A stretch of DNA of 63,464 nt from an uncultured Gemmatimonadaceae bacterium (GTDB lineage Bacteria; Gemmatimonadota; Gemmatimonadetes; Longimicrobiales; RSA9), in the NCBI GenBank assembly GCA_964416095.1, contig CAYQCY010000001.1, positions 7,064 through 70,527 of the forward strand, read 5' to 3'. The notes beneath the pieces are model-generated. The model made no database searches and had not been told where the DNA came from. It saw nothing but the letters and a program-made list of their open reading frames with translations. Within the stretch, counting starts at the first letter, position 1, and every line of letters begins with the position of its first letter. Below are positions 2,416-48,539 of the stretch, in pieces. A program made the position numbers and the translations under genes.

Positions 2416-4242
2416 ATGTGCGGGATCGTAGGCTACGTGGGCCACCGAAGCGCCGTGCCGCTCCTCGTGGAGGGACTGCGCCGCCTGGAGTACCGGGGCT
2501 ACGACTCGGCAGGCGTCACGATCCAGGAGAACGGCGCCCTGGCCACGCGTCGCGCCGTGGGCAAGATCCGGAACCTCGAGGCCCGGGTCGCGGCGGACCG
2601 CCTGGAGGGCACGGCGGGCATCGCCCACACCCGCTGGGCGACGCACGGCGCGCCCACCGAGCCGAACGCACACCCCCACCAGGACTGCACGGGCACCATC
2701 GCCCTGGCCCACAACGGCATCATCGAGAACGCGGGCGTGCTGCGCAGGAAGCTGGAGGGGCTGGGCCACGAGTTCCGGAGCGAGACGGACACGGAGGTCC
2801 TCGCGCACCTGGTGGAGGAGGCGTACGAGGACTCCCTCGAAGCGGCGGTCCGAGCCGCGCTCCGGCAGGTGGAGGGGGCGTACGGCCTGGTCGTGGTCAG
2901 CAGCCGGGAGCCGGACACGATCATCGCCGCCCGTCACGGCAGCCCGCTGCTGCTGGGCCTCGGAGACGACGAGCACTTCGTGGCCAGCGACGTGGCGGCC
3001 GTGCTGGCCCACACCCGCAACGTCATCTACCTGGAGGACGGGGAGATGGCCGTGGTGAGCCCGGCGGGCTACCGGACCTACGAGCTGCGCGGCGGCCCCG
3101 TCACGAAGGAGGTGGAGCAGGTCTCCTGGGACCTCGAGGCCATCGAGAAGGGCGGCCACGCCCATTTCATGCTGAAGGAGATCTTCGAGCAGCCCTGCAC
3201 GCTGCGCGACACCATGCGCGGCCGGCTGTTGGAGGAGGAAGGCACGGCCAAGCTGGGCGGCCTCGAGCACCTGTCGGATCGCCTCGACCGGGTCAGCAAC
3301 ATCATCATCACGGCCTGTGGCACCTCGTGGCACGCCGCGCTGCTGGGCGAGTACATGCTGGAGGAGTTCGCCCACATCCCGGTGGAGGTGGAGTACGCCT
3401 CCGAGTTCCGCTACCGGAGCCCGGTCATTCCGCGGGACACGGTGGTCATCGCCATTAGCCAGTCCGGGGAGACGGCGGACACGTTGGCGGCGATCCGGGA
3501 AGCGAAGAAGCGGGGGGCCACGGCCATGGGCATGGTGAACGTGGTAGGCTCCAGCATCGCCCGGGAGACGGACGGCGGTGTCTACATCCATGCCGGTCCC
3601 GAGATCGGCGTGGCCTCGACCAAGGCGTTCACGAGCCAGGTCGTGACACTGGCCCTGTTCACCACGCTCATGGCGCGGCGCCGGACCATGTCGGTGCTCC
3701 AGGGCCGGGAGATCGTGGCGGCGCTCCAGCGGCTGCCGGACCAGGTGGAGCGGCTGCTGGCCCTGGACGACACGATCCGGGAGCTGGCCGAGACGTACGT
3801 CGATGCGACGAACGTCCTGTACCTGGGCAGGGGCTACAACTTCCCGACGGCGCTGGAGGGTGCCCTCAAGCTCAAGGAGATCAGCTACATCCATGCCGAG
3901 GGGCTGCCGGCGGCCGAGATGAAGCACGGCCCCATCGCCCTCATCACGGACGCCATGCCGGTGGTGGTGGTGGCGCCGGACGACGCCGTCTACAGCAAGG
4001 TCGTCTCGAACATCGAGGAGGTGAAGGCCCGGGGCGGGAAGGTGATCGCCGTGGTCACGGAAGGGAACGGCGGCCTGGACGGGAAGGCGGACCATCTCAT
4101 CGAGATCCCCCGCACGCTGGACATGCTGACGCCGATCCTGGCGACGATCCCGCTCCAGCTCCTGGCCTACCACATCGCGGTCCTGCGAGGCTGCAACGTG
4201 GACCAGCCGCGCAACCTGGCGAAATCCGTCACCGTGGAGTAG
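2416..4242 (+). CDS. glmS: Glutamine--fructose-6-phosphate transaminase (isomerizing)
   Basis: MCGIVG start (Ntn Cys), HTRWATHG, HNGIIEN, SQSGETAD, C-terminal PRNLAKSVTVE. Confidence 0.98.
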   Translation: MCGIVGYVGHRSAVPLLVEGLRRLEYRGYDSAGVTIQENGALATRRAVGKIRNLEARVAADRLEGTAGIAHTRWATHGAPTEPNAHPHQDCTGTIALAHNGIIENAGVLRRKLEGLGHEFRSETDTEVLAHLVEEAYEDSLEAAVRAALRQVEGAYGLVVVSSREPDTIIAARHGSPLLLGLGDDEHFVASDVAAVLAHTRNVIYLEDGEMAVVSPAGYRTYELRGGPVTKEVEQVSWDLEAIEKGGHAHFMLKEIFEQPCTLRDTMRGRLLEEEGTAKLGGLEHLSDRLDRVSNIIITACGTSWHAALLGEYMLEEFAHIPVEVEYASEFRYRSPVIPRDTVVIAISQSGETADTLAAIREAKKRGATAMGMVNVVGSSIARETDGGVYIHAGPEIGVASTKAFTSQVVTLALFTTLMARRRTMSVLQGREIVAALQRLPDQVERLLALDDTIRELAETYVDATNVLYLGRGYNFPTALEGALKLKEISYIHAEGLPAAEMKHGPIALITDAMPVVVVAPDDAVYSKVVSNIEEVKARGGKVIAVVTEGNGGLDGKADHLIEIPRTLDMLTPILATIPLQLLAYHIAVLRGCNVDQPRNLAKSVTVE

Positions 4243-4245
4243 CGA

Positions 4246-4267
4246 GGCCCCGGCCGTAGCCGGGGCT
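4246..4267 (+). terminator. GC-rich hairpin after glmS (no U-tract; weak terminator or stabilising stem)
   Basis: GGCCCCGGC-CGTA-GCCGGGGCT. Confidence 0.35.
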
Positions 4268-4282
4268 GGAGGGAGGGTCGTC

Positions 4283-4723
4283 GTGCGAGTCGTCGTGCAG
4301 CGGGTGAGTCGGGCCGAGGTCCGGGTCGAAGGTGACGTGTCCGGCCGGATCGGCCGGGGGTTCCTTCTCCTCGTGGGCTTCGCCGAGGACGACGACGAAA
4401 GCGCCCTCGCCTGGATGGCCGACAAGCTCGCCGGGCTCCGCGTGTTCCCGGACGAGGAGGGACGCATGAACCGGAGCGCCGACGACGTGGCGGCGGCGTT
4501 CCTCGTCGTGAGCCAGTTCACGCTCTACGGCGACGTGAGCCGCGGGCGGCGTCCCAGCTTCGCAGGTGCGGCGGCGCCGGACACGGCGGTGCCCCTGTAC
4601 GAGCGATTCATCGCGTTGCTCGAAGAACGGGCGCCCGGGCGCGTCGCCTCCGGCGAGTTCGGTGCGCTCATGGAGGTGGAGCTCGTCAACGACGGCCCCG
4701 TGACCCTGATCGTGGAACGATGA
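4283..4723 (+). CDS. dtd: D-aminoacyl-tRNA deacylase
   Basis: MRVVVQRV start, VSQFTL motif, RRPSF, NDGPVT. Confidence 0.96.
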   Translation: MRVVVQRVSRAEVRVEGDVSGRIGRGFLLLVGFAEDDDESALAWMADKLAGLRVFPDEEGRMNRSADDVAAAFLVVSQFTLYGDVSRGRRPSFAGAAAPDTAVPLYERFIALLEERAPGRVASGEFGALMEVELVNDGPVTLIVER

Positions 4724-5367
4724 ACCGAACGTCCGACGGACCGGCCGTGGTGCACACCGAATCGGCCCCGCCGCTGGTGCTGGGCTCGGCGTCGCCGCGG
4801 CGGAAGATGCTGCTGGAGATGCTGGGCCTGCCGTTCGACGTGGTGCCGTCGGGGCTCGAGGAGGCGCTGGCGCCCGGTGAGGAGCCGGCGACGCACGCGG
4901 AGCGCCTGGCCCGGGAGAAAGCCGCGGCGGTGGCGGTGCAGCGGCCGGAGGCGCTGGTCATCGGCGGGGACACGCTGGTCGTCATCGACCACACGCCGCT
5001 GGGCAAGCCCCGGGGCGAGCGGGCGGCGGTGGAGATGCTCATGCGGCTCCAGGGCGACACCCACAGGGTGGAGACGGGGGTGGCGGTGGTCACGCCGGGC
5101 GGGCGCGTGGAGAGCTCGGTGGTGAGCGTGCACGTCCGCTTCCGGCCCTTCGACCGGCACACGGCGGAGCAGTACGTGGCGACGGGCGAGCCCATGGACA
5201 AGGCCGGCTCGTACGGGATCCAGGGCTACGGGGCCACCCTCGTCGAGTGGATCGAGGGCGACTACTTCGCCGTCATGGGCCTGCCCCTCGCCCGCCTCGT
5301 CTCCCTCCTCCGGGCCGTGGGCTGGCACTACGCCTTCGGCGGCCTGGAGGCGCTTCCCCGTGCTTGA
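4720..5367 (+). CDS. maf: Maf family nucleoside triphosphate pyrophosphatase
   Basis: LGSASPRR, GGDT, LGKP, GEPMDKAGSYGIQG, VMGLP. Confidence 0.93.
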   Translation: MNRTSDGPAVVHTESAPPLVLGSASPRRKMLLEMLGLPFDVVPSGLEEALAPGEEPATHAERLAREKAAAVAVQRPEALVIGGDTLVVIDHTPLGKPRGERAAVEMLMRLQGDTHRVETGVAVVTPGGRVESSVVSVHVRFRPFDRHTAEQYVATGEPMDKAGSYGIQGYGATLVEWIEGDYFAVMGLPLARLVSLLRAVGWHYAFGGLEALPRA

Positions 5368-6436
5368 CCATCCACAGGCCGTCCGCTGGACCGAGGACGG
5401 TGCGGTGGACCTCCTGGACCAGACCGCCCTGCCCGAGCGGGAGGTGCGGCTTCGCCTGGACACGGCGGACGGGGTGGCCGAAGCGATCCGCTCCCTCAGG
5501 GTCAGGGGCGCACCGGCCATCGGCATCGCGGCCGCCATGGGCCTGGTGGCGGCCCTGCGCAGGATGGGGCCGACCGACACGGGGACGGCGTTGCGTGGGG
5601 CGGAGGCCATGGCCGCCCGGCTCCGTGGGACGCGGCCCACGGCGGTGAACCTGGTCCGGGCGCTGGACCGGATGCTCGACCGGGCGCGAGCGGAGGTCGC
5701 CGCGGGCGGGGACGGCGTCGAGGCGCTGATCGCGGCCCTCCACGCCGAGGCCACGGCGATCCACGAGGAGGACCGGGCCATGTGCCGCCGGATCGGCGAG
5801 CACGGGCAGACCCTCCTGCCCGAGGGCGCGGTGCGCATCCTGACCCACTGCAACGCGGGCGCCCTGGCCACGGGCGGCATGGGCACGGCCCTCGCCCCGG
5901 TCTACGTCGCGGCGCAGGCGGGCCGGGACGTGAAGGTCTACGCCGACGAGACCCGACCGCTGCTCCAGGGTAGCCGGTTGACGGCGTGGGAGCTGGCCCG
6001 GGCCGGGATCGACGTGACGGTGGTCGTGGACTCGGTGGCGGCGTCGCTCATGGCGTCGGGTAGCGTGGACCTGGTCCTCGTTGGCGCCGACCGCGTGGCC
6101 GCCAACGGCGATGTGGCCAACAAGATCGGCACGTACGGGCTGGCCGTGCTGGCGCGTCACCACGGCATCCCGTTCTACGTGGCCATCCCGGTCACCACGC
6201 TGGACCCGGAGGCCCCGGACGGCGGCGCCATACCCATCGAGGAGCGGGACGCGGACGAGGTGCGCCGCGGCTTCGGCGCCCTGACGGCGCCGGTTGCCGT
6301 GCCCGTGCGTGCCCCGGCCTTCGACGTGACGCCGGCGTCTCTGGTGACGGCCCTCCTGACGGATCGGGGCGTGCTGCGTCCGCCTTTCGGTCCGGCGATA
6401 CGCGACGCGCTCGATGAAAGGAAGGAGCCTGCCTGA
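5360..6436 (+). CDS. mtnA: S-methyl-5-thioribose-1-phosphate isomerase
   Basis: LDQT, VRGAPAIG, TRPTAVNL, ILTHCNAGALAT, ETRPLLQGSRLT, NKIGTY. Confidence 0.95.
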   Translation: MLDHPQAVRWTEDGAVDLLDQTALPEREVRLRLDTADGVAEAIRSLRVRGAPAIGIAAAMGLVAALRRMGPTDTGTALRGAEAMAARLRGTRPTAVNLVRALDRMLDRARAEVAAGGDGVEALIAALHAEATAIHEEDRAMCRRIGEHGQTLLPEGAVRILTHCNAGALATGGMGTALAPVYVAAQAGRDVKVYADETRPLLQGSRLTAWELARAGIDVTVVVDSVAASLMASGSVDLVLVGADRVAANGDVANKIGTYGLAVLARHHGIPFYVAIPVTTLDPEAPDGGAIPIEERDADEVRRGFGALTAPVAVPVRAPAFDVTPASLVTALLTDRGVLRPPFGPAIRDALDERKEPA

Positions 6437-40388: not shown

Positions 40389-43300
40389 ATGACTCGATGC
40401 CTCGGCATCCTCGCCGTCGCAGTGGCGGTGCTGGCGGTCCCCGCCGAGGCGCAATTCGGACGGAACAAGGTCCAGTACCGTGCGTTCGATTTCGAGGTCA
40501 TCAAGACGGAGCACTTCGACGTCCACTTCTATGCGCAGGAGCGCCAGGCGTCCATGGACGCGGCGCGCATGGCGGAACGGGCGTACGCCCGGCTGTCGCG
40601 GCTGCTGCAGCACGAGTTCCGGGAACGCAAGCCGCTGATCCTGTACGCGTCCCACAGCGACTTCCAGCAGACCAACGCCCTGGCCGGCTTCATCGGCGAA
40701 GGCACGGGCGGGGTGACGGAGATCCTGAAGAACCGGGTCATCCTGCCGTTCACGGGGTCGTACGCCGATTTCGAGCACGTGCTGACCCACGAGCTGGTGC
40801 ATGCGTTCCAGTTCGACGTGCTCTTCCGGCACGGCGTCATCGCGGAGACGTCGCCGTCGCTGGGGCGCATCCCGCTCTGGTTCATGGAGGGAATGGCCGA
40901 GTACCTGTCCATCGGCCGCATCGATGCGCACACGGCTTCGTGGGTCCGGGACGCGGCCCTCGGGGGCTACATCCGTAGCGTCGCCGAGATGAACCGGAGG
41001 GATGACTACCTCTCGTACCGGTTCGGCCAGTCGCTCTGGGCCTTCATCGGTGAGAAGTGGGGCGACGAGGTGGTGGGGATCCTGCTCCAGAAGGTGCCCC
41101 GCATGGGGCTGGAGCGGGCGTTCGCGTCGACCCTCGGCCTGACGCTGGACGAGCTCTCCAACGAGTGGCTGACGGCCGTGCGCTCGACCCACCTGCCGGA
41201 GCTCGTGCAGCGCGAAGGACCCGGCCGGTTCGGGACCCGGCTGACGGAGCACGACGCGCTCTACGACCCCTGGTACCTGGCCCCGGCCCTGTCGCCGGAC
41301 GGTGAGCTCGTGGTCTACGCCTCGCAGCGGGACGGGTTCTTCGTGGACCTGTGGCTGGCCGACGCGCGGACCGGCGAGGTGCTGGACCGGCTGGTGAAGT
41401 CGTCCCGGAGCGCGGACTTCGAATCGCTGCGCTACCAGAGCTCGGCGGCCGCCTTCTCGCCCGACGGCGGCTACGTGGCGCTGGCGGCCCAGTCCCGGGG
41501 GCGGGACGCCCTCTACATCTACGACCTGGAGCGCCGCCGGATACGACGGCGGTTGACGTTCCCCGTCAACGGCATCGCCAACCCGTCCTGGGCCCCGGAC
41601 GGGCAGCGCATCGTGTTCACCGGCCTGGACGGCGGGTTGAGCGACCTGTTCGTGACGGACCTGGACGGCAACCTGGAGCGCCTCACCCGGGACCGGTACG
41701 CGGACCTGACACCATCGTGGTCGCCCGACGGCCGCCGGATCGCCTTCACGACGGACCGGGGTCCGGCGACGGACATGGCGCGGCTCCGCTACGGCAATTT
41801 CCGGGTGGCCCTCCTGGAGGTGGCCACCGGCCGCATCGAGCTGCTGCCCGGGCAGGAGGAGGGCACGAACCTGAACCCGGTGTGGGCGCCGGACGGCCGA
41901 TCGCTGGCCTGGGTCAGCGACCGGACCGGGGTCAACGACCTGTACCTGTTCGACCTGGAGCAGAGGGAGCTGGCCCGGGTGACGAACGTGCTTTCCGGGA
42001 TCATCGGGACGAACCACCTGACCCCGGTCCTGTCCTGGGCCCGCGCCGCGCCGCGCCTGGTCTTCGTCTACTTCGAGGACGGCGGCTACAACCTGTACGT
42101 GGTGGAGGACCCGCGCCTGCTACCACGGACGCCGGTCAGGGCGGCGCCGGCCCCTACGGTCGCCTCGGCCTCGAAGTCGGCGGAGCCGGCGTCGCACGGC
42201 ACCGGTCCGTCGCTGCCGGGCACGAACGGGGTGACGCACCCGGCGGCGGCGGAGCCGTCCCTGGAACGGCCTTGGGAGGCGGCCGACAGCTTCCCCGAAT
42301 CCATCTACAGGGCTTCGGGGGCGTTCCGCCTGAGCGCCAGGCCCCCGGGCGGGGCGGACGGGGAGCGCGACGGCCCCCTGTCCGTCGTGGCGCTGCTGGA
42401 CAGCGCGGACATGGCGCTGCCGGACACGTCGGACTTCGACGTCGTGGACTACGACGTCTCCTTCTCGCCCGACATCGTGGGCAGGCCCACCATCGGCGCG
42501 AGCGTGGGCGGCTACTACGGCAACGGGCTGTACGGCGGCAGCTACATCTCCCTGTCGGACATGCTGGGCAACCACAACGTGGTGCTGGCAGGGAACATCA
42601 ACGGGTCCCTCTCCGACGCGGTGTTCTACGGCGGGTACGCCTTTCTGAAGCGGCGGGTCAACTGGGGCGTGTCCTTCCAGCAGGTGCCGTTCTACCGGTA
42701 CCGGGGCCTGCAGTCGTTCGAGCTGGACCACGAGGGCACATCGGAGGAGGCGCTCGCTCACATCTTCGTTCGGGATGTGATCCGCTCGGCCCGGGGCGTG
42801 GCCAGCTACCCGTTCAGCCAGTTCCGGCGCGCCGAGCTCGGGATGAGCGCCGTGTACTTCGAGCGGGACTATCTCCTGCGCGGCGTCTTCCGTGAGTCGG
42901 GCCGGCCCGTGCGCCAGGAAGACCGCATCGGCGATGTCGTCTTCTACGAGCCGTCGGCGGCACTGGTCTTCGACAACGTCATCTTCGGCTGGACCGGCCC
43001 CGTCATGGGGCGGCGCTACCGGATCCAGCTCTCCCGCACGCTGGGCGACTACGCGTACGACGAGGTGTTCCTGGATCTCCGCAACTACTGGAACCTGGAA
43101 CAGACGCTGGTGCTGGGCGGCCGGTTCGTCGCGCTGGTCCGGAACGGACCCGACGCGGACCGGTTCTCCCTCTACTGGGGCGGGCCCTACTTCATCCGCG
43201 GCTACGATGCCACCTCGTTCGACCACGACGGTCCCGAGTGTGCCGGCAGCGGCGTCGCCGCCTGCCCGGCCCGGGACCAACTCATCGGGTCGAGCGCCGC

Positions 43301-43661
43301 CTTCATGAACCTGGAGGTCCGCTTCCCGGTGATCACCGAGCTCCAGCTGGGCTTCCTGGGCGCGTTCCCGCCGGTGGACGCCGTGGCGTTCTTCGACGGC
43401 GGGCTGGCCTGGGACAACGAGGTCTGCACCACGCTGAGCGTCGATCCCACGGCAGGCTGCCCCGGCGCCCGGCCGGTGCACGTGGTCTGGGAGCGAGGGA
43501 AGGGCCAGGATCCGTATCTCTATCGGGCGCCCCTGCTCAGCTACGGGCTCGGGCTCCGGCTCAACGTCTTCTACGCGATCCTCCGGCTGGACTACGCGTT
43601 CCCGCTGAGCCGGCCGGACAGGAGCGGCGTCTTCTCCGTTTCGTTCGGGCCGTCGTTCTGA
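40389..43661 (+). CDS. Outer-membrane fusion: MA-type zinc peptidase + PD40/TolB propeller + Omp85 barrel
   Basis: Signal peptide; HELVH plus WFMEGMAEY; SPDG repeats; IRGY loop-6 motif; terminal aromatic FGPSF. Confidence 0.8.
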   Translation: MTRCLGILAVAVAVLAVPAEAQFGRNKVQYRAFDFEVIKTEHFDVHFYAQERQASMDAARMAERAYARLSRLLQHEFRERKPLILYASHSDFQQTNALAGFIGEGTGGVTEILKNRVILPFTGSYADFEHVLTHELVHAFQFDVLFRHGVIAETSPSLGRIPLWFMEGMAEYLSIGRIDAHTASWVRDAALGGYIRSVAEMNRRDDYLSYRFGQSLWAFIGEKWGDEVVGILLQKVPRMGLERAFASTLGLTLDELSNEWLTAVRSTHLPELVQREGPGRFGTRLTEHDALYDPWYLAPALSPDGELVVYASQRDGFFVDLWLADARTGEVLDRLVKSSRSADFESLRYQSSAAAFSPDGGYVALAAQSRGRDALYIYDLERRRIRRRLTFPVNGIANPSWAPDGQRIVFTGLDGGLSDLFVTDLDGNLERLTRDRYADLTPSWSPDGRRIAFTTDRGPATDMARLRYGNFRVALLEVATGRIELLPGQEEGTNLNPVWAPDGRSLAWVSDRTGVNDLYLFDLEQRELARVTNVLSGIIGTNHLTPVLSWARAAPRLVFVYFEDGGYNLYVVEDPRLLPRTPVRAAPAPTVASASKSAEPASHGTGPSLPGTNGVTHPAAAEPSLERPWEAADSFPESIYRASGAFRLSARPPGGADGERDGPLSVVALLDSADMALPDTSDFDVVDYDVSFSPDIVGRPTIGASVGGYYGNGLYGGSYISLSDMLGNHNVVLAGNINGSLSDAVFYGGYAFLKRRVNWGVSFQQVPFYRYRGLQSFELDHEGTSEEALAHIFVRDVIRSARGVASYPFSQFRRAELGMSAVYFERDYLLRGVFRESGRPVRQEDRIGDVVFYEPSAALVFDNVIFGWTGPVMGRRYRIQLSRTLGDYAYDEVFLDLRNYWNLEQTLVLGGRFVALVRNGPDADRFSLYWGGPYFIRGYDATSFDHDGPECAGSGVAACPARDQLIGSSAAFMNLEVRFPVITELQLGFLGAFPPVDAVAFFDGGLAWDNEVCTTLSVDPTAGCPGARPVHVVWERGKGQDPYLYRAPLLSYGLGLRLNVFYAILRLDYAFPLSRPDRSGVFSVSFGPSF

Positions 43662-43791
43662 GCGCGCGGCGGGGGCGGGACGCGGGCCTTTTTTCGAGTG
43701 GTCGGCGGCCTTATCATACCATGATCATCCGGTACACGGCTCCCGGCTCCGGGAGCGCATCGAGACCCACAACTCTGATCGGTTCCGACGC

Positions 43792-45168
43792 ATGAGCCTG
43801 GACGCACGGCCCGCCCCCACACCCTTCGACCTGGAAGGGGGCGAGGCCCCGCCTGCTCTGGACGACGAACGGATGCTCGGGCCCGGCGCGCCGCCGGTGC
43901 TCCTGGTCGTCGTCGGGCGGGGAGCCCGCTCGACGGGCTGGGCGGCGAGGGCGACGGTCGCCATTGTCCGGCACCTTGCCGGGGGCCGGAGCGTGGTGCT
44001 GGCCGACCTGAGCATGGACCGGCCCGAGCTCCACGATCTGCTGGGCGTCTCCAACCTGGAGGGGCTACCGGACATCTTCCTCTTCGGTGCGTCGGTGGCC
44101 CGGGTCGCCCAGGCGGTGCCGGGCGAGCCCTTCGAGCTGGTGGCTGCAGGTTCCTACGTCCCGGACGCCCGCGAGATCGTGGCCTCGCCGCGTTGGGAAC
44201 GGATCGCCGAGGAGTACCGCATGGGCGGCGCCACCCTGGTGGCGTTCGTGCCCGCCGACGCCCCGGGCGTGGAGGAGCTGGCCGGGCGCATGGGCGCGGC
44301 GCTGGTGCTGGCGGAGCCGGAGGAGGCCGACGCCGTGGCAGGCCGGCTCCCGGAGTCGTGCACGGTGCACGGCATCCTGACCCCGGCCCGGGACGTGGAG
44401 GAGGCCGCGGATCGCGAGACCGGGGCCGAGCTCGAGCCGCGTCCCCCGCTGGACGACCTGAGCACGCCGCCGGTTCTACGGCAGCCGGGCCGGCGCCGGC
44501 GCACCTCGCGGCTGCTCCTGGTGCTGTTGCTGGTGCTCCTGGCCGTCGCGGCCTGGTACTTCTACAAGGAGTACATGGCCGGGTCGGCGGAGCCGGCGCC
44601 GGCGGAACCCGTCACGACGGAAGCGGCCGCGCCGGCGGAGCCGGCACGGACACGGGGCGAGCCCGCCGGCGCCGAGCTCGGTGTGTCGGTGAACGTGGCC
44701 ATCTACCAGAGCTACGAGATGGCCCGGGACCGGCTCGACGAGCTGCGCCGCGGCGAACCGTCCGTGGGCTTCTATCTGTCCCCGTTCGAGCAGGACGGCG
44801 TGCGCTACTATCGACTCCAGGCGGGGCCGGCGGCGGACCCGGCCGGGGGGCGCGCGCTGCTCCGGCGACTGTACGATGCGGGCCAGATCACGGCCATGGA
44901 GGACTACGCGGTCCGTCCCACCACCTGGGCGTTCCGGATCGGGGACTACGACACCCTGGACGCGGCCCGGGCCCGGCAGCGGACGCTGGCGGAGCAGGGC
45001 GTGCCGTGCTACGTGGTGGAGATCCCCTACACCTCCGGTCCATCCCGCTACCGTCTGTACGGCGGGGCGTACGAGTACCGGGCGGAGGCGCAGGCCATGG
45101 CAGCTCTCCTCGAGGCTTCGGACATCGAGGCGGAGCTCGTCGAACGAACGGGGCGGCCTATCGTATGA
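43792..45168 (+). CDS. MinD/CapB-like (no Walker A) domain + TM helix + SPOR-like domain protein
   Basis: VVLADLSMDRPELHDLLGVSNLEGL resembles MinD/BY-kinase core; RRRR-LLLVLLLVLLAVAAWYF TM; C-terminal YRLQAGP and YRLYGGAY SPOR-like strands. Confidence 0.65.
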   Translation: MSLDARPAPTPFDLEGGEAPPALDDERMLGPGAPPVLLVVVGRGARSTGWAARATVAIVRHLAGGRSVVLADLSMDRPELHDLLGVSNLEGLPDIFLFGASVARVAQAVPGEPFELVAAGSYVPDAREIVASPRWERIAEEYRMGGATLVAFVPADAPGVEELAGRMGAALVLAEPEEADAVAGRLPESCTVHGILTPARDVEEAADRETGAELEPRPPLDDLSTPPVLRQPGRRRRTSRLLLVLLLVLLAVAAWYFYKEYMAGSAEPAPAEPVTTEAAAPAEPARTRGEPAGAELGVSVNVAIYQSYEMARDRLDELRRGEPSVGFYLSPFEQDGVRYYRLQAGPAADPAGGRALLRRLYDAGQITAMEDYAVRPTTWAFRIGDYDTLDAARARQRTLAEQGVPCYVVEIPYTSGPSRYRLYGGAYEYRAEAQAMAALLEASDIEAELVERTGRPIV

Positions 45169-48100
45169 AGCTCCGCAGGTTGCGTCTCCACGGGTTCAAG
45201 TCATTCGCCGACACGACGGATATGGAGTTCCACGATGGCATCACGGCCATCGTGGGTCCCAACGGCTGTGGCAAGTCCAACATCAGCGATGCGATCCGCT
45301 GGGTCCTTGGCGAGCAGCGTCCCACGGCCATCCGGGGCGCGCGCATGGACGAGGCGATCTTCCAGGGCACCACGAACCGACGCGGGCTGAACCGCGCGGA
45401 GGTGGCCCTCGTGGTGTCCAACGACGAGCGCACCCTCGCCATGCCGCACGACGAGATCGAGATCCGGCGCACCGTCTTCCGGGAGGAAGGCAGCGAGTAC
45501 GAGCTGAACCGGGAGCCGGTGCGGCTGCGCGACATCCTGGACGTGTGCCGGGATACGGGACTCGGCGCCAACGCCTACGCGGTCATCGAGCAGGGCATGG
45601 TGGACGCCATCCTCTCCGACCGGCCGGATGAGCGGCGGCACCTGTTCGAGGAGGCCGCGGGGATCGGTCGCTACAAGGATCGCCGCAGGGCCGCCCAGCG
45701 GCGCCTGGACGCCACCGAAGCCGACCTGGCCCGGCTGGAGGACATCATCTCCGAGGTCCAGACCAAGGTGCGTAGCCTGGCCCGGCAGCGGAGCAAGGCG
45801 GAACGATACGAGCAGCTTCGCGCCCGGCGGTTGAACCTGGAGGTGGCCGTAGCCGGCGCGGACCTGGACGCGGTGCAGGGCGACCTGGCCACGGCCGAGG
45901 AGCGCCTGAAGGGCCTGTCCCGGGACGAGCCCACGGCCCGGACCGAGCTGGCCACCGCCGAGGCCGAGCTGGAACGGCGCCGTACGGAAGCGGCGGACGT
46001 AGCCCGCCGGCGGAACGAGGCGGCCCGCGGGCTGGAGGAGGTGAACCAGTCGATCGCGGGGCGGGAGCGGGAGCTGGCGGTGGCCCAGGAGCGGCGGGCA
46101 CATGCCCAGCGTCGTCTGCAGCAGATCGAGGGTGATCGCGACGACCTGCGTCGGCGGATCACGACGCTGCGGGACGAGGTGGAGGAGCTGGAGCGTGATG
46201 CCGTGGAGCGGAAGGAGAGCTTCGCCGCACTGGCCGAGCGCCTGGAGGCGGTTCGGGACAGACAGCGGGCCATGCGGGAAGAGCTCTCCGCCGCACGCCA
46301 GAAGGAAGAGAAGGCGCGGGAGCGGGAGGAGGACCTGGCCCGCCGCATCGCACGGCTCGAGGGGGATGCCCGGTCGACCGAAGTGCGCGCGGCCGAGGCG
46401 GACGAGCGTGCGGAGCGGCTGGACCTGGAAGAGGAGGAGCTCGAGGCCGAGCTGGCCCGTCTGGACGAGCAGGGCGACCTCTTCGAGGCCCGGGCGGACG
46501 AGCTGGCCGCTCGGCACGATGCCCTGGCCTCGGACCTGGAGGCTACCCGCGAGCAGGTGGAGGCGTTGCGGCAGGAGGAACAGGAGGCCCGGCGGGCGTT
46601 CAACGAGGCCGAGGACCGGGCGAACCTCCTTGCGGCTCGCCTGGCGGCGGTGGAGGCCCTGGAACGGGAGGACCACGGGTTCGGACCCGCGGTGGCCGCC
46701 GTGCTCGCCGCCCGGGACCGGCTGGAAGGCCTGGCCGGTCCGCTGGCCGAGTTCCTGGAGATGGACCCGGACCGGGCTGCAGCGGTCGAGGATGCGCTGG
46801 GATCGCTGCTCCAGGCCATCGTCGTCGAGGATGAGGCGGCCGTCGACCGGATCCGGGCATGGATGGCGGCGGAGGCCGAGGAGACGGGCGTTCTGGCCCT
46901 GCTGCCCCGGGAGACGCTGGATCGGGTCCGGGGACTGCTGGAGGCGGTCCGGTTCGCCGGTGAGCCGGCCTCGGAGCCGGTGCTCATCGGTCGGCGTGAG
47001 CGCCTGGCGTCGCTACGCTCGGACGTGGAAGAAGCGAGACGGGTGCGGGACGCCAGGGACGCGGCCCGGGCCTCCCTGGGTGAGGGCGTGCAGGGCGCCG
47101 AGGCCGAGTCCCGGGAGCTGGAGGAGCAGTACCGGGGCGTCGAGCTGGAGCTGCGGCGTCTCGAAGCGGACGAGGCGGCCCGGAGCGGCCAGCGGGCCCG
47201 GGCGGAGCGGTCGCGCCACGAGATCGAGCGGCAGCGAGCGGGGCTTCTTGCGGCCGCGGAGCAGGCCCGGGCGGAGGCGGCGTCGGCCCGGGAGGAGAAG
47301 AACCGGCTCGAGAGCGAGCTGGAGACGCGGCAGGACGCGCGGCGGGAGGCCGGCAAGGCGCTGGACGCGCGGCAGGCGGCCTGGGAGGAGGTCCGTGAGG
47401 AGGAAGCCGAGCTGCGGGTGGCGCATGCCCGGGAAGAGGCGGCGCTGGCGGAGCTGGACCGGCGCAGGGCGGGCGCCGAGGAGTCCATCGAGCACGCCGA
47501 GTCCCGTCTCCAGGCGCTGGACGCCGAGGAGGAGGAGCACCACCGGACGTTGGAGGAGCTGGAGACGACGCGGGAAGAGGCCGAGGCGGATCTGGAGGCG
47601 CTGTTCGGACGGAGAGACGAGGCGGCCGCCTCCCTGTCCGAGCTGGACCGGCTGCTGGAGGAAGCGGCCAGCGCGGCGGATGAGCTGGAGACCAGGGCGC
47701 GGGCGTTGCGGCGCACGGCCGAGAGCAAGGGCGAGGAACGGCACAAGCTGGAGCTGGTCGTGGCCCAGGGCCAGGCGGTGCGGAACCGGGTGCACGAGCG
47801 GCTGGAGCTGGAGTGGGGGCGCGGGCTCGAGGAGCTGCGCCGGGAGGCGGAGCCGGTGGACGGAGACGTGGAAGCGCTCCGCGGCGAGCTGAACCAGCTC
47901 GTCGCCGACCTGGACCGGCTCGGGCCCATCAACATGCTCGCCGTGGAGGAGTACGAGGAGGAAAAGGAGCGCCTCGACTTCCTCGAGAGCCAGCGGGACG
48001 ACCTGGTGGAGGCCCGGAACGACCTGGATACGGCCATCCGGCAGATCAACCGCACGGCCAAACAGCTTTTCCGGGACACGTTCGAGAAGGTGCAGGCCAA

Positions 48101-48539
48101 CTTCGACCGCACCTTCGCCATCCTCTTCGAGGGCGGGCAGTGCGGGCTCGTCCTCTCGGACCCGGATGACCCCCTGGAGTCGGACATCGAGGTGTCCGCG
48201 TCGCCGCGGGGCAAGAAGACGCAGCGGATCCACCTGCTCAGCGGCGGCGAACGGGCGCTCACCGCCCTGGCGCTGCTCTTCGCCATCTACCTGGTGAAGC
48301 CGAGCCCGTTCTGCGTGCTGGACGAGGTCGATGCCCCACTGGACGAGGCCAACATCGGGCGCTTCCTCCACATGCTGGACGAGTTCAAGGGCCAGACCCA
48401 GTTCATCGTCATCACGCACAACCCCCGCACCATGGAAGCGGCCGATTGGATCTACGGCGTGACCATGGAGGAGGCGGGCGTGAGCTCCATCGTGGGCGTG
48501 CAGATGGACGAGGTCCTCGCCATGGAGAGCGTCGAGTAA
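45165..48539 (+). CDS. smc: Chromosome segregation protein SMC (1124 aa, short hinge)
   Basis: GFKSF, GPNGCGKSN Walker A, IEQG Q-loop, long coiled coils, LSGGE signature, LDEVDAPLD, ITH. Confidence 0.96.
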   Translation: MKLRRLRLHGFKSFADTTDMEFHDGITAIVGPNGCGKSNISDAIRWVLGEQRPTAIRGARMDEAIFQGTTNRRGLNRAEVALVVSNDERTLAMPHDEIEIRRTVFREEGSEYELNREPVRLRDILDVCRDTGLGANAYAVIEQGMVDAILSDRPDERRHLFEEAAGIGRYKDRRRAAQRRLDATEADLARLEDIISEVQTKVRSLARQRSKAERYEQLRARRLNLEVAVAGADLDAVQGDLATAEERLKGLSRDEPTARTELATAEAELERRRTEAADVARRRNEAARGLEEVNQSIAGRERELAVAQERRAHAQRRLQQIEGDRDDLRRRITTLRDEVEELERDAVERKESFAALAERLEAVRDRQRAMREELSAARQKEEKAREREEDLARRIARLEGDARSTEVRAAEADERAERLDLEEEELEAELARLDEQGDLFEARADELAARHDALASDLEATREQVEALRQEEQEARRAFNEAEDRANLLAARLAAVEALEREDHGFGPAVAAVLAARDRLEGLAGPLAEFLEMDPDRAAAVEDALGSLLQAIVVEDEAAVDRIRAWMAAEAEETGVLALLPRETLDRVRGLLEAVRFAGEPASEPVLIGRRERLASLRSDVEEARRVRDARDAARASLGEGVQGAEAESRELEEQYRGVELELRRLEADEAARSGQRARAERSRHEIERQRAGLLAAAEQARAEAASAREEKNRLESELETRQDARREAGKALDARQAAWEEVREEEAELRVAHAREEAALAELDRRRAGAEESIEHAESRLQALDAEEEEHHRTLEELETTREEAEADLEALFGRRDEAAASLSELDRLLEEAASAADELETRARALRRTAESKGEERHKLELVVAQGQAVRNRVHERLELEWGRGLEELRREAEPVDGDVEALRGELNQLVADLDRLGPINMLAVEEYEEEKERLDFLESQRDDLVEARNDLDTAIRQINRTAKQLFRDTFEKVQANFDRTFAILFEGGQCGLVLSDPDDPLESDIEVSASPRGKKTQRIHLLSGGERALTALALLFAIYLVKPSPFCVLDEVDAPLDEANIGRFLHMLDEFKGQTQFIVITHNPRTMEAADWIYGVTMEEAGVSSIVGVQMDEVLAMESVE

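Follow-up and report, generated by a model that had tools for sequence, protein, structure and literature searches.

The few known links between chromosome and septum (MatP-ZapB, SlmA/Noc and CpsD-ParB/RocS) are each limited to particular lineages, and to our knowledge the coordination of chromosome organisation with septum closure is largely unknown outside model phyla. Gemmatimonadota, the phylum treated here, is abundant in soil. Among the described systems closest to the one reported below, CpsD of Streptococcus pneumoniae is a septal bacterial tyrosine (BY) kinase that binds ParB and couples chromosome segregation with an envelope process (PMC4574921). BY pseudokinases, for their part, are defined as proteins with the BY-kinase fold that have lost the Walker motifs and the tyrosine tail; EcpK and HfsB, which serve the kinase-less polysaccharide copolymerases of class 2 (PCP-2) EpsV and HfsA, respectively, have been proposed as scaffolds that work by protein–protein contact at the inner membrane (PMC12004946). 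SPOR domains, finally, target denuded septal glycan (PMC6895207). Here, we describe a gene that encodes a BY-pseudokinase domain and two SPOR domains in a single polypeptide and lies directly upstream of smc. It occupies positions 43,792–45,168 of a 63,464-nucleotide (nt) stretch of contig CAYQCY010000001.1 (assembly GCA_964416095.1), from an uncultured Gemmatimonadaceae bacterium, which is referred to below as the window.

Domain architecture of the smc-linked protein

The gene product (P0001) consists, with very high confidence, of a cytoplasmic BY-kinase-fold domain, one transmembrane (TM) helix and two periplasmic SPOR domains (Table 1). It is a new architecture assembled from known parts, whose function we infer. 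An AlphaFold2 model of the 458-residue protein, built on a 30-sequence alignment, had a mean predicted local distance difference test score (pLDDT) of 88. Since the N-terminus MSLDAR... is common to 13 close homologues, the ATG at 43,792 is the real start. At the other end of the gene, the bases at 45,162–45,170 read cgtATGAag, in which the TGA stop (45,166–45,168) overlaps the smc ATG (45,165–45,167), exactly as an initial annotation of the window, made from the letters and their open reading frames (ORFs), had claimed.

We analyzed the fold of the N-terminal domain (N-domain) by profile and structure comparison. As a single sequence searched against the PDB, it matched the kinase domain of Wzc (3la6) at E 5.6e-5 over residues 65–139. 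With a profile of 27 N-domains from across Gemmatimonadota (A3), BceF, Wzc, Etk, VpsO and CapB were matched at E 2.7e-12 to 4e-8, while matches to MinD, FleN and Soj were weaker but significant, at E 2e-4 to 2e-3. When the AlphaFold2 model was compared with the PDB using Foldseek, the top 50 matches were all BY-kinase domains (best E 1.2e-9, probability 1.0), aligned over ~176 columns with a root-mean-square deviation of ~3 Å. The initial annotation had staked its reading on a P-loop-fold similarity of the N-domain, which both the PDB profile search and Foldseek found; of the MinD/ParA/BY-kinase core that it proposed, the P-loop fold is real and the BY-kinase part holds (E ~1e-12), whereas MinD, at E ~1e-4, is not the nearest relative. 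The motif VVLADL...PELHDLLG..N.EGL.D is present at residues 68–94. The NCBIfam BY-kinase models (TIGR03018, TIGR01007 and related ones) stayed far below threshold, with a best score of 21.3 bits against a cut-off of 230, and a search of the genome with TIGR01007 gave no match at the pseudokinase locus. Likewise, a Pfam scan of the 27 isolated N-domains returned no significant family, so that no existing domain model describes them.

The catalytic motifs were located by hidden Markov model (HMM) alignment to Wzc. At the Walker A position, W50, A51 and A52 occupy the places of G, K and T, and GK[ST] was found in no member of the phylum-wide 30-sequence alignment, which confirms the lack of this P-loop motif noticed earlier; in most members of the phylum, the Walker A loop moreover carries a 3-residue deletion. 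The Walker A' remnant VVLADLSMDR aligns with LLIDCDMRK of Wzc, the first Asp (D72, retained in at least 90% of members) being kept and the second Asp and the Arg being lost. At the Walker B position, A151 aligns with the Walker B Asp of Wzc (LIDTPP), and P154, the second Pro of DTPP, is retained. Tyrosines number 0–5 per N-domain and are scattered, with no C-terminal cluster, and an acidic or Pro-rich linker comes after the domain. The catalytic losses (Walker A Lys and Thr, second A' Asp, Walker B Asp and Tyr cluster) occur in every aligned member. Having the BY-kinase fold and having lost the Walker motifs and the Tyr tail, the N-domain therefore falls under the definition of a BY pseudokinase. 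Since the catalytic residues are missing, no kinase or ATPase function is possible, and the domain is very probably a non-catalytic scaffold.

Could the domain instead bind a nucleotide or small ligand non-canonically and act as a switch rather than a passive scaffold? Such a role would fit the conservation, in at least 90% of members, of D72 together with the pocket-lining motifs EGLxDxFxFG, xPxG and RW, as well as the Gly-rich GRGARSTG stretch kept in P0001. However, these motifs are also core structural motifs of BY-kinases, and the Gly-rich stretch results from an insertion of 3 residues specific to one lineage, a Gly-rich loop being absent from most members. With the Lys, the Thr and the Asp residues of Walker B and of the second Walker A' position all missing, we consider a switch extremely unlikely. 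The N-domain of P0001 is acidic (pI 4.6, net charge −13, no Lys, 2 Tyr), as are those of the family (median pI 5.0, net charge −6). Because of this acidity, direct DNA binding by the domain was judged unlikely and protein binding more likely.

The cytoplasmic linker that follows differs strongly in length among homologues. As the initial annotation had it, a single hydrophobic helix comes after the poly-Arg at the end of this linker. Since the poly-Arg stands at the N-terminal side of the helix, the positive-inside rule gives a cytoplasmic N-domain and periplasmic SPOR domains, and the topology suggested at first is thereby supported. In Longimicrobiales-type members (alignment A1), a juxtamembrane motif (D/E)LxxPxhhR is conserved before the poly-Arg (window 44,455–44,490, residues 222–233) and may be a short linear motif. 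For the periplasmic part, SPOR (PF05036) was the sole Pfam family found in the whole protein, at 48.3 bits against a cut-off of 21, and the second domain scanned alone (residues 371–458) scored 34.2 bits, also above the cut-off. The SPOR fold is a four-stranded antiparallel sheet flanked by two helices (bioRxiv 10.1101/2022.07.01.498525), and the AlphaFold2 model contains two beta-alpha-beta-beta-alpha-beta units, at residues 298–376 and 377–451, with pLDDT >90, both of which match this description. What had been read from the sequence as tandem SPOR-like strands is thus a pair of SPOR-fold units.

Table 1. Features of the pseudokinase-SPOR gene and its junction with smc (window coordinates)
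Feature	Position	Strand	Residues or length	Basis
Intergenic spacer upstream of the gene	43662..43791	+	130 nt	
Whole gene, BY-pseudokinase / TM / 2x SPOR protein (P0001)	43792..45168	+	458 aa	ORF translation without stops, Pfam, AlphaFold2
Cytoplasmic BY-kinase-fold domain	43792..44391	+	1-200	PDB profile matches, Foldseek, pLDDT ~95
Degenerate Walker A position GRGARSTGWAAR	43915..43950	+	42-53	HMM alignment to Wzc
Walker A' remnant VVLADLSMDR	43993..44022	+	68-77	HMM alignment
Walker B position TLVAFVPADAPG	44233..44268	+	148-159	HMM alignment
Disordered cytoplasmic linker ending in poly-Arg RRRR (234-237)	44392..44499	+		pLDDT <55
Single TM helix LLLVLLLVLLAVAAWYFY	44512..44565	+	241-258	AlphaFold2 and hydrophobicity, positive-inside rule
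Periplasmic Pro/Ala/Glu-rich linker	44578..44682	+	263-297	Low pLDDT
SPOR domain 1	44683..44919	+	298-376	Pfam, AlphaFold2
SPOR domain 2, conserved RTGRP at end	44920..45165	+	377-458	Pfam, AlphaFold2
ATGA stop/start overlap with smc	45165..45168	+		Same overlap in 42/56 loci across the phylum
smc, downstream gene, probably translationally coupled	45165..48539	+	1124 aa	

We also analyzed the distribution of the family. Using the full-length profile, it was detected in 131 of 201 sampled Gemmatimonadota genomes and in 80 of 98 genera, and the named records all belong to this phylum (Longimicrobiales, Gemmatimonadales and Gemmatimonas metagenome-assembled genomes). A search for related loci with alignment A1 returned Gemmatimonadota only, plus one SPOR-only match labelled delta proteobacterium, and a second homologue search with the profile added one further protein. 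Against 1.84 billion cluster representatives, the N-domain profile gave 611 matches at E<=1e-30 and 5282 at E<=1e-10. Public records name the proteins 'hypothetical protein' or 'SPOR domain-containing protein', with 'Mrp family chromosome partitioning ATPase' used in JGI, and no description of the family was found in the literature on SPOR domains with BY-kinases or on SPOR domains in Gemmatimonadetes.

The junction with smc and its variation among lineages

The initial annotation would have given up its reading if linkage to smc were not conserved. Across the phylum, smc lies directly downstream of the gene in all 56 loci that have downstream sequence, with an overlap or a zero gap in 53. The gene and smc are likewise paired at L056, from a Gemmatimonas metagenome-assembled genome. 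The distance from stop to smc start is −4 (ATGA) in 42 loci, −1 (TAGTG) in 8, 0 in 3, +6 in 2 and +74 in 1, counts in which the upstream frame is possibly wrong for L034, L035 and perhaps L016, where the reported C-terminus is unlike the SPOR tail. Insertions (an Omp85-fusion gene and a propeller-SPOR gene) are found upstream of the gene only, and none separates it from smc. Furthermore, the junction between the gene and smc is nearly invariant, whereas at other junctions the presence of an overlap differs from genome to genome.

A Shine-Dalgarno (SD)-like run lies 5–20 nt before the smc start in 29 of the 56 loci, compared to 13 expected from control windows. GGGAG precedes smc in all 11 loci with a GTG start, and many ATGA loci are without an SD-like run. 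Since only about half of the loci have such a run, the arrangement fits coupling by termination and reinitiation. The conserved C-terminal R-T-G-R of the protein overlaps the smc ribosome-binding region (window 45,142–45,165, and the same position in the 56 loci); in the 11 GTG-start loci, it includes GGG AGA, a Gly codon and the rare Arg codon AGA, which yields GGGAG 9–15 nt before the start. Because the codons of R-T-G-R here supply GGGAG ahead of smc, its conservation as amino acids may partly reflect selection on nucleotides.

On the upstream side, spacers of 125–273 nt precede the gene in the window and in three annotated relatives (L001, L002 and L004), and it is therefore probably the first gene of one unit with smc. 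Promoter and terminator scans around the gene gave nothing convincing. An imperfect GC-rich hairpin followed by TTTTTT (U6), at ~43,647–43,694, straddles the stop of the preceding gene, and a T6 run is unusual in a genome of 72% GC; the hairpin with its U6, which is absent from the results of the terminator scan, did not outperform shuffled sequences. That preceding gene (window 40,389–43,661) encodes a 1090-residue fusion protein in which a BSP-type peptidase-like region is joined to PD40 propellers and an Omp85 barrel. The fusion stands between rsfS and the pseudokinase-SPOR gene in 8 of 25 six-kb loci, as well as in the window and the same three relatives. Being present in just 8 of the 25, it is not a fixed part of the unit. 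In the neighbouring smc itself, the Pfam SMC_hinge match is restricted to model positions 2–61 of 116 (residues 521–579).

The periplasmic half of the protein varies among lineages. In family f2, which belongs to the same order, a genome-wide search found no SPOR domain at all in 11 of 12 genomes, closed genomes included, and this absence suggests a changed septal wall biology. In genus g6 of this family, the encoded pseudokinase domain is followed by a linker, a TM helix and a tail of 30 residues that lacks SPOR, and this SPOR-less gene still overlaps smc, by ATGA in three genomes and TGATG in one (f2 loci L076–L079, from genomes G060, G140, G142 and G078). Since g6 keeps the overlap with smc after dispensing with SPOR, the conserved core is a membrane-anchored pseudokinase beside smc, and the SPOR pair is an add-on, used by most lineages, which presumably brings this core to the septum. 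Several genera of family f4 encode a different SPOR protein of ~475–520 residues, in which a signal peptide and a beta-propeller-like region precede a C-terminal SPOR domain. At L006, a propeller-SPOR gene (3860–5404) and the pseudokinase-SPOR gene both precede smc and overlap each other by 4 nt.

The window's genome was also searched for other SPOR and chromosome-partitioning proteins. Five SPOR proteins are detectable in the 95%-complete assembly. The four others have signal peptides and comprise a TPR-SPOR protein, a lipoprotein-SPOR, a beta-barrel-like protein with a coiled coil and SPOR, and a small SPOR protein. None of these four has a cytoplasmic domain, so that P0001 alone among the five could act as a relay from septal glycan to the cytoplasm or back. 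The genome also encodes, at another locus, a bona fide ParA.

Proposed function and competing explanations

We tentatively propose that the protein is a septum-targeted pseudokinase scaffold that links the envelope with the chromosome machinery, a chain of steps that may well fail as a whole even where single steps hold. It would be a bitopic inner-membrane scaffold, recruited through its SPOR domains to denuded glycan where the septum constricts, as FtsN, DamX and DedD are. By analogy with these proteins, septal targeting is rather likely in the SPOR-bearing lineages. The dead kinase domain would act by protein–protein contact, like EcpK and HfsB (PMC12004946), and would hold or position a cytoplasmic partner at the membrane or septum. 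Because of the conserved, probably translational coupling to smc, SMC-ScpAB or ParB is the leading candidate for this partner, doubtful as we hold either of them to be, and the binding of ParB by septal CpsD in pneumococcus offers a precedent (PMC4574921); with such a partner, chromosome clearance or organisation could be coordinated with septum closure. A narrower version, which we regard as unlikely, is that the protein is a membrane-anchored accessory factor of SMC-ScpAB (or ParB) and that its dead BY-kinase domain, in most cases kept at the constricting septum by the SPOR domains, docks or unloads condensin. Clearance or organisation of the chromosome arms would thereby keep pace with septum closure, and the ATGA overlap would fix the protein's synthesis to that of SMC.

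Several observations weigh against a septal scaffold working with the chromosome machinery, and they weaken the initial annotation's idea of an adaptor between septal peptidoglycan and, possibly, SMC. First, all of the 25 six-kb loci are anchored upstream by rsfS, which is not known to be connected with SMC; since it is conserved equally well, synteny alone is weak evidence for an SMC link. Stop/start overlaps are also common, occurring at 1–3 of the ~7–12 co-directional junctions of each annotated locus. The gene itself is missing from f2 genera g7 and g8, where rsfS abuts smc, and several f4 genera have just the propeller-SPOR gene directly before smc (L071–L075), from which it follows that SMC does not require the protein. 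ScpA and ScpB were found in 16 of 16 relatives, encoded together elsewhere (on C102 in the window's genome), so SMC has its canonical partners; replacement of ScpAB by the pseudokinase-SPOR protein was rejected, both ScpA and ScpB being present. As regards the septum, the SPOR part is dispensable in g6, which retains the pseudokinase-TM core beside smc, and in P0001 the first SPOR domain scanned alone (residues 291–373) reached 20.2 bits (E 7.5e-4), just under the cut-off of 21.

Much of this evidence also suits the main rival explanation, in which the protein is a regulator of the divisome or of septal peptidoglycan synthesis resembling FtsN, DamX or DedD, the N-domain binds FtsA, FtsZ or another protein, and the linkage to smc amounts to joint transcription and translation in an inherited, frozen operon, with neither a physical nor a functional tie to SMC. 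The N-in/SPOR-out bitopic topology is that of FtsN, DamX and DedD, the protein is the sole SPOR protein of its genome with a cytoplasmic domain, the synteny with rsfS is conserved just as well as that with smc, smc works without the gene in g7, g8 and some f4 genera, and ScpAB is encoded elsewhere. However, the junction with smc is never interrupted, although upstream insertions are frequent, and the SPOR-less g6 form keeps the overlap, which indicates that the core is the pseudokinase-TM unit and not a septal-glycan reader. In addition, Pfam and NCBIfam searches, which matched only SPOR and, weakly, BY-kinase models, revealed nothing resembling the essential domain of FtsN or the cytoplasmic domain of DamX. 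On these grounds, we see the divisome regulator as possible, though on the improbable side. If the linkage to smc meant co-expression only, the protein would still rank as the phylum's best candidate for a transmembrane division component of the FtsN kind.

Since the closest characterised relatives of the N-domain work as partners of PCP-2 proteins (PMC12004946), the protein could alternatively be a BY pseudokinase that serves a kinase-less PCP-2 and scaffolds capsule or exopolysaccharide export, perhaps at the septum. The genome does contain a Wza-like gene beside a kinase-less Wzz/GNVR PCP (contig C27:14292-19369; ~340 residues, with a cytoplasmic tail of ~50), and no true BY-kinase was found in the assembly, the two weak TIGR01007 matches being ParA and Mrp. 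In P0089, a metagenomic protein, an active BY-kinase of the Wzc type and a domain of the family (169 bits) form one polypeptide. In contrast, when presence of the family was compared with that of GNVR PCPs in the 201 genomes, 100 had both, 31 the family only, 51 the PCP only and 19 neither, so that the two are independent (odds ratio 1.2, p = 0.61), and closed genomes are among the 31 that have the family alone. The gene, moreover, is never in a polysaccharide cluster and always beside smc, and the protein has its own TM anchor and its own periplasmic domains. Given the independence of the two distributions, a PCP partnership is very unlikely, and the phyletic comparison gives a polysaccharide-export partner no support as a general explanation.

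P0089 (L080:3204-6113) is a 969-residue Wzc-like PCP-2a in which the Walker A, A' and B motifs are intact, a Tyr cluster is present and the pseudokinase-family domain comes after the kinase. It is encoded in a Wza-Wzc-sugar transferase-GT2-Wzx-Wzy cluster, and the next gene appears, from its sequence, to resemble a degenerate GGDEF-type domain. The fusion hints at the origin of the pseudokinase domain.

Comparison with known systems

The locus is a candidate link between envelope or septum and chromosome handling. What sets it apart is that a phylum-wide family joins a septal-wall reader and a pseudo-enzyme scaffold in one protein encoded stop-to-start with smc, and it is in this sense that it offers a candidate for the link in Gemmatimonadota. 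With this family, moreover, the recently defined class of BY pseudokinases reaches beyond polysaccharide export.

Compared to EcpK of Myxococcus xanthus and HfsB of Caulobacter crescentus, the protein has the same BY-kinase fold and has likewise lost its Walker A, A' and B motifs together with the Tyr tail (PMC12004946). EcpK and HfsB are soluble, stand-alone proteins, encoded in Wzx/Wzy clusters, that bind a PCP-2 tail (PMC12004946), whereas the smc-linked protein carries a C-terminal TM helix of its own together with two SPOR domains, is encoded beside smc and is independent of PCPs. The BY-kinases Wzc/Etk, BceF, VpsO and CapB (PDB 3la6, 3cio, 6z0p, 6u1q, 2ved/4jlv), are the best profile and structural matches, over ~175 residues. 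The hhhhD of Walker A', GLxD/E, xPxG and the P of DTPP are common to both. In contrast to the kinases, the pseudokinase domain has no catalytic Lys/Thr or Asp and no Tyr cluster, and no ExxRxxR motif was seen in it by eye; the topology is reversed, with the kinase-like domain N-terminal to the TM helix, and there is no PCP periplasmic domain. The deviant Walker A ATPases MinD, ParA (Soj) and FleN share the SIMIBI-class fold and give weak yet significant profile matches, some eight orders of magnitude weaker than those to BY-kinases. Unlike MinD and ParA, the pseudokinase domain has neither KGGxxGK[ST] nor a C-terminal amphipathic helix.

With respect to topology, the closest counterparts are FtsN, DamX and DedD of Proteobacteria, which likewise have an N-in part, one TM helix, a periplasmic linker and a C-terminal SPOR domain (PMC6895207, PMC7642682, bioRxiv 10.1101/2022.07.01.498525). 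The smc-linked protein differs in having two SPOR domains, a short linker and a folded 200-residue pseudo-NTPase, where the cytoplasmic part of FtsN, DamX and DedD is a short peptide or an unrelated domain. Outside SPOR there is no sequence similarity, and the SPOR part of the smc-linked protein is dispensable in one lineage. With CpsC/CpsD, it has in common that a BY-kinase-fold protein is held at the division site by a membrane partner (PMC4574921), a likeness that for the smc-linked protein would depend on the proposed septal targeting. CpsD, however, is an active autokinase that works through phosphorylation and is encoded in a capsule locus (PMC4574921), whereas the pseudokinase domain described here is catalytically dead and is joined to an anchor of its own in a protein encoded with smc.

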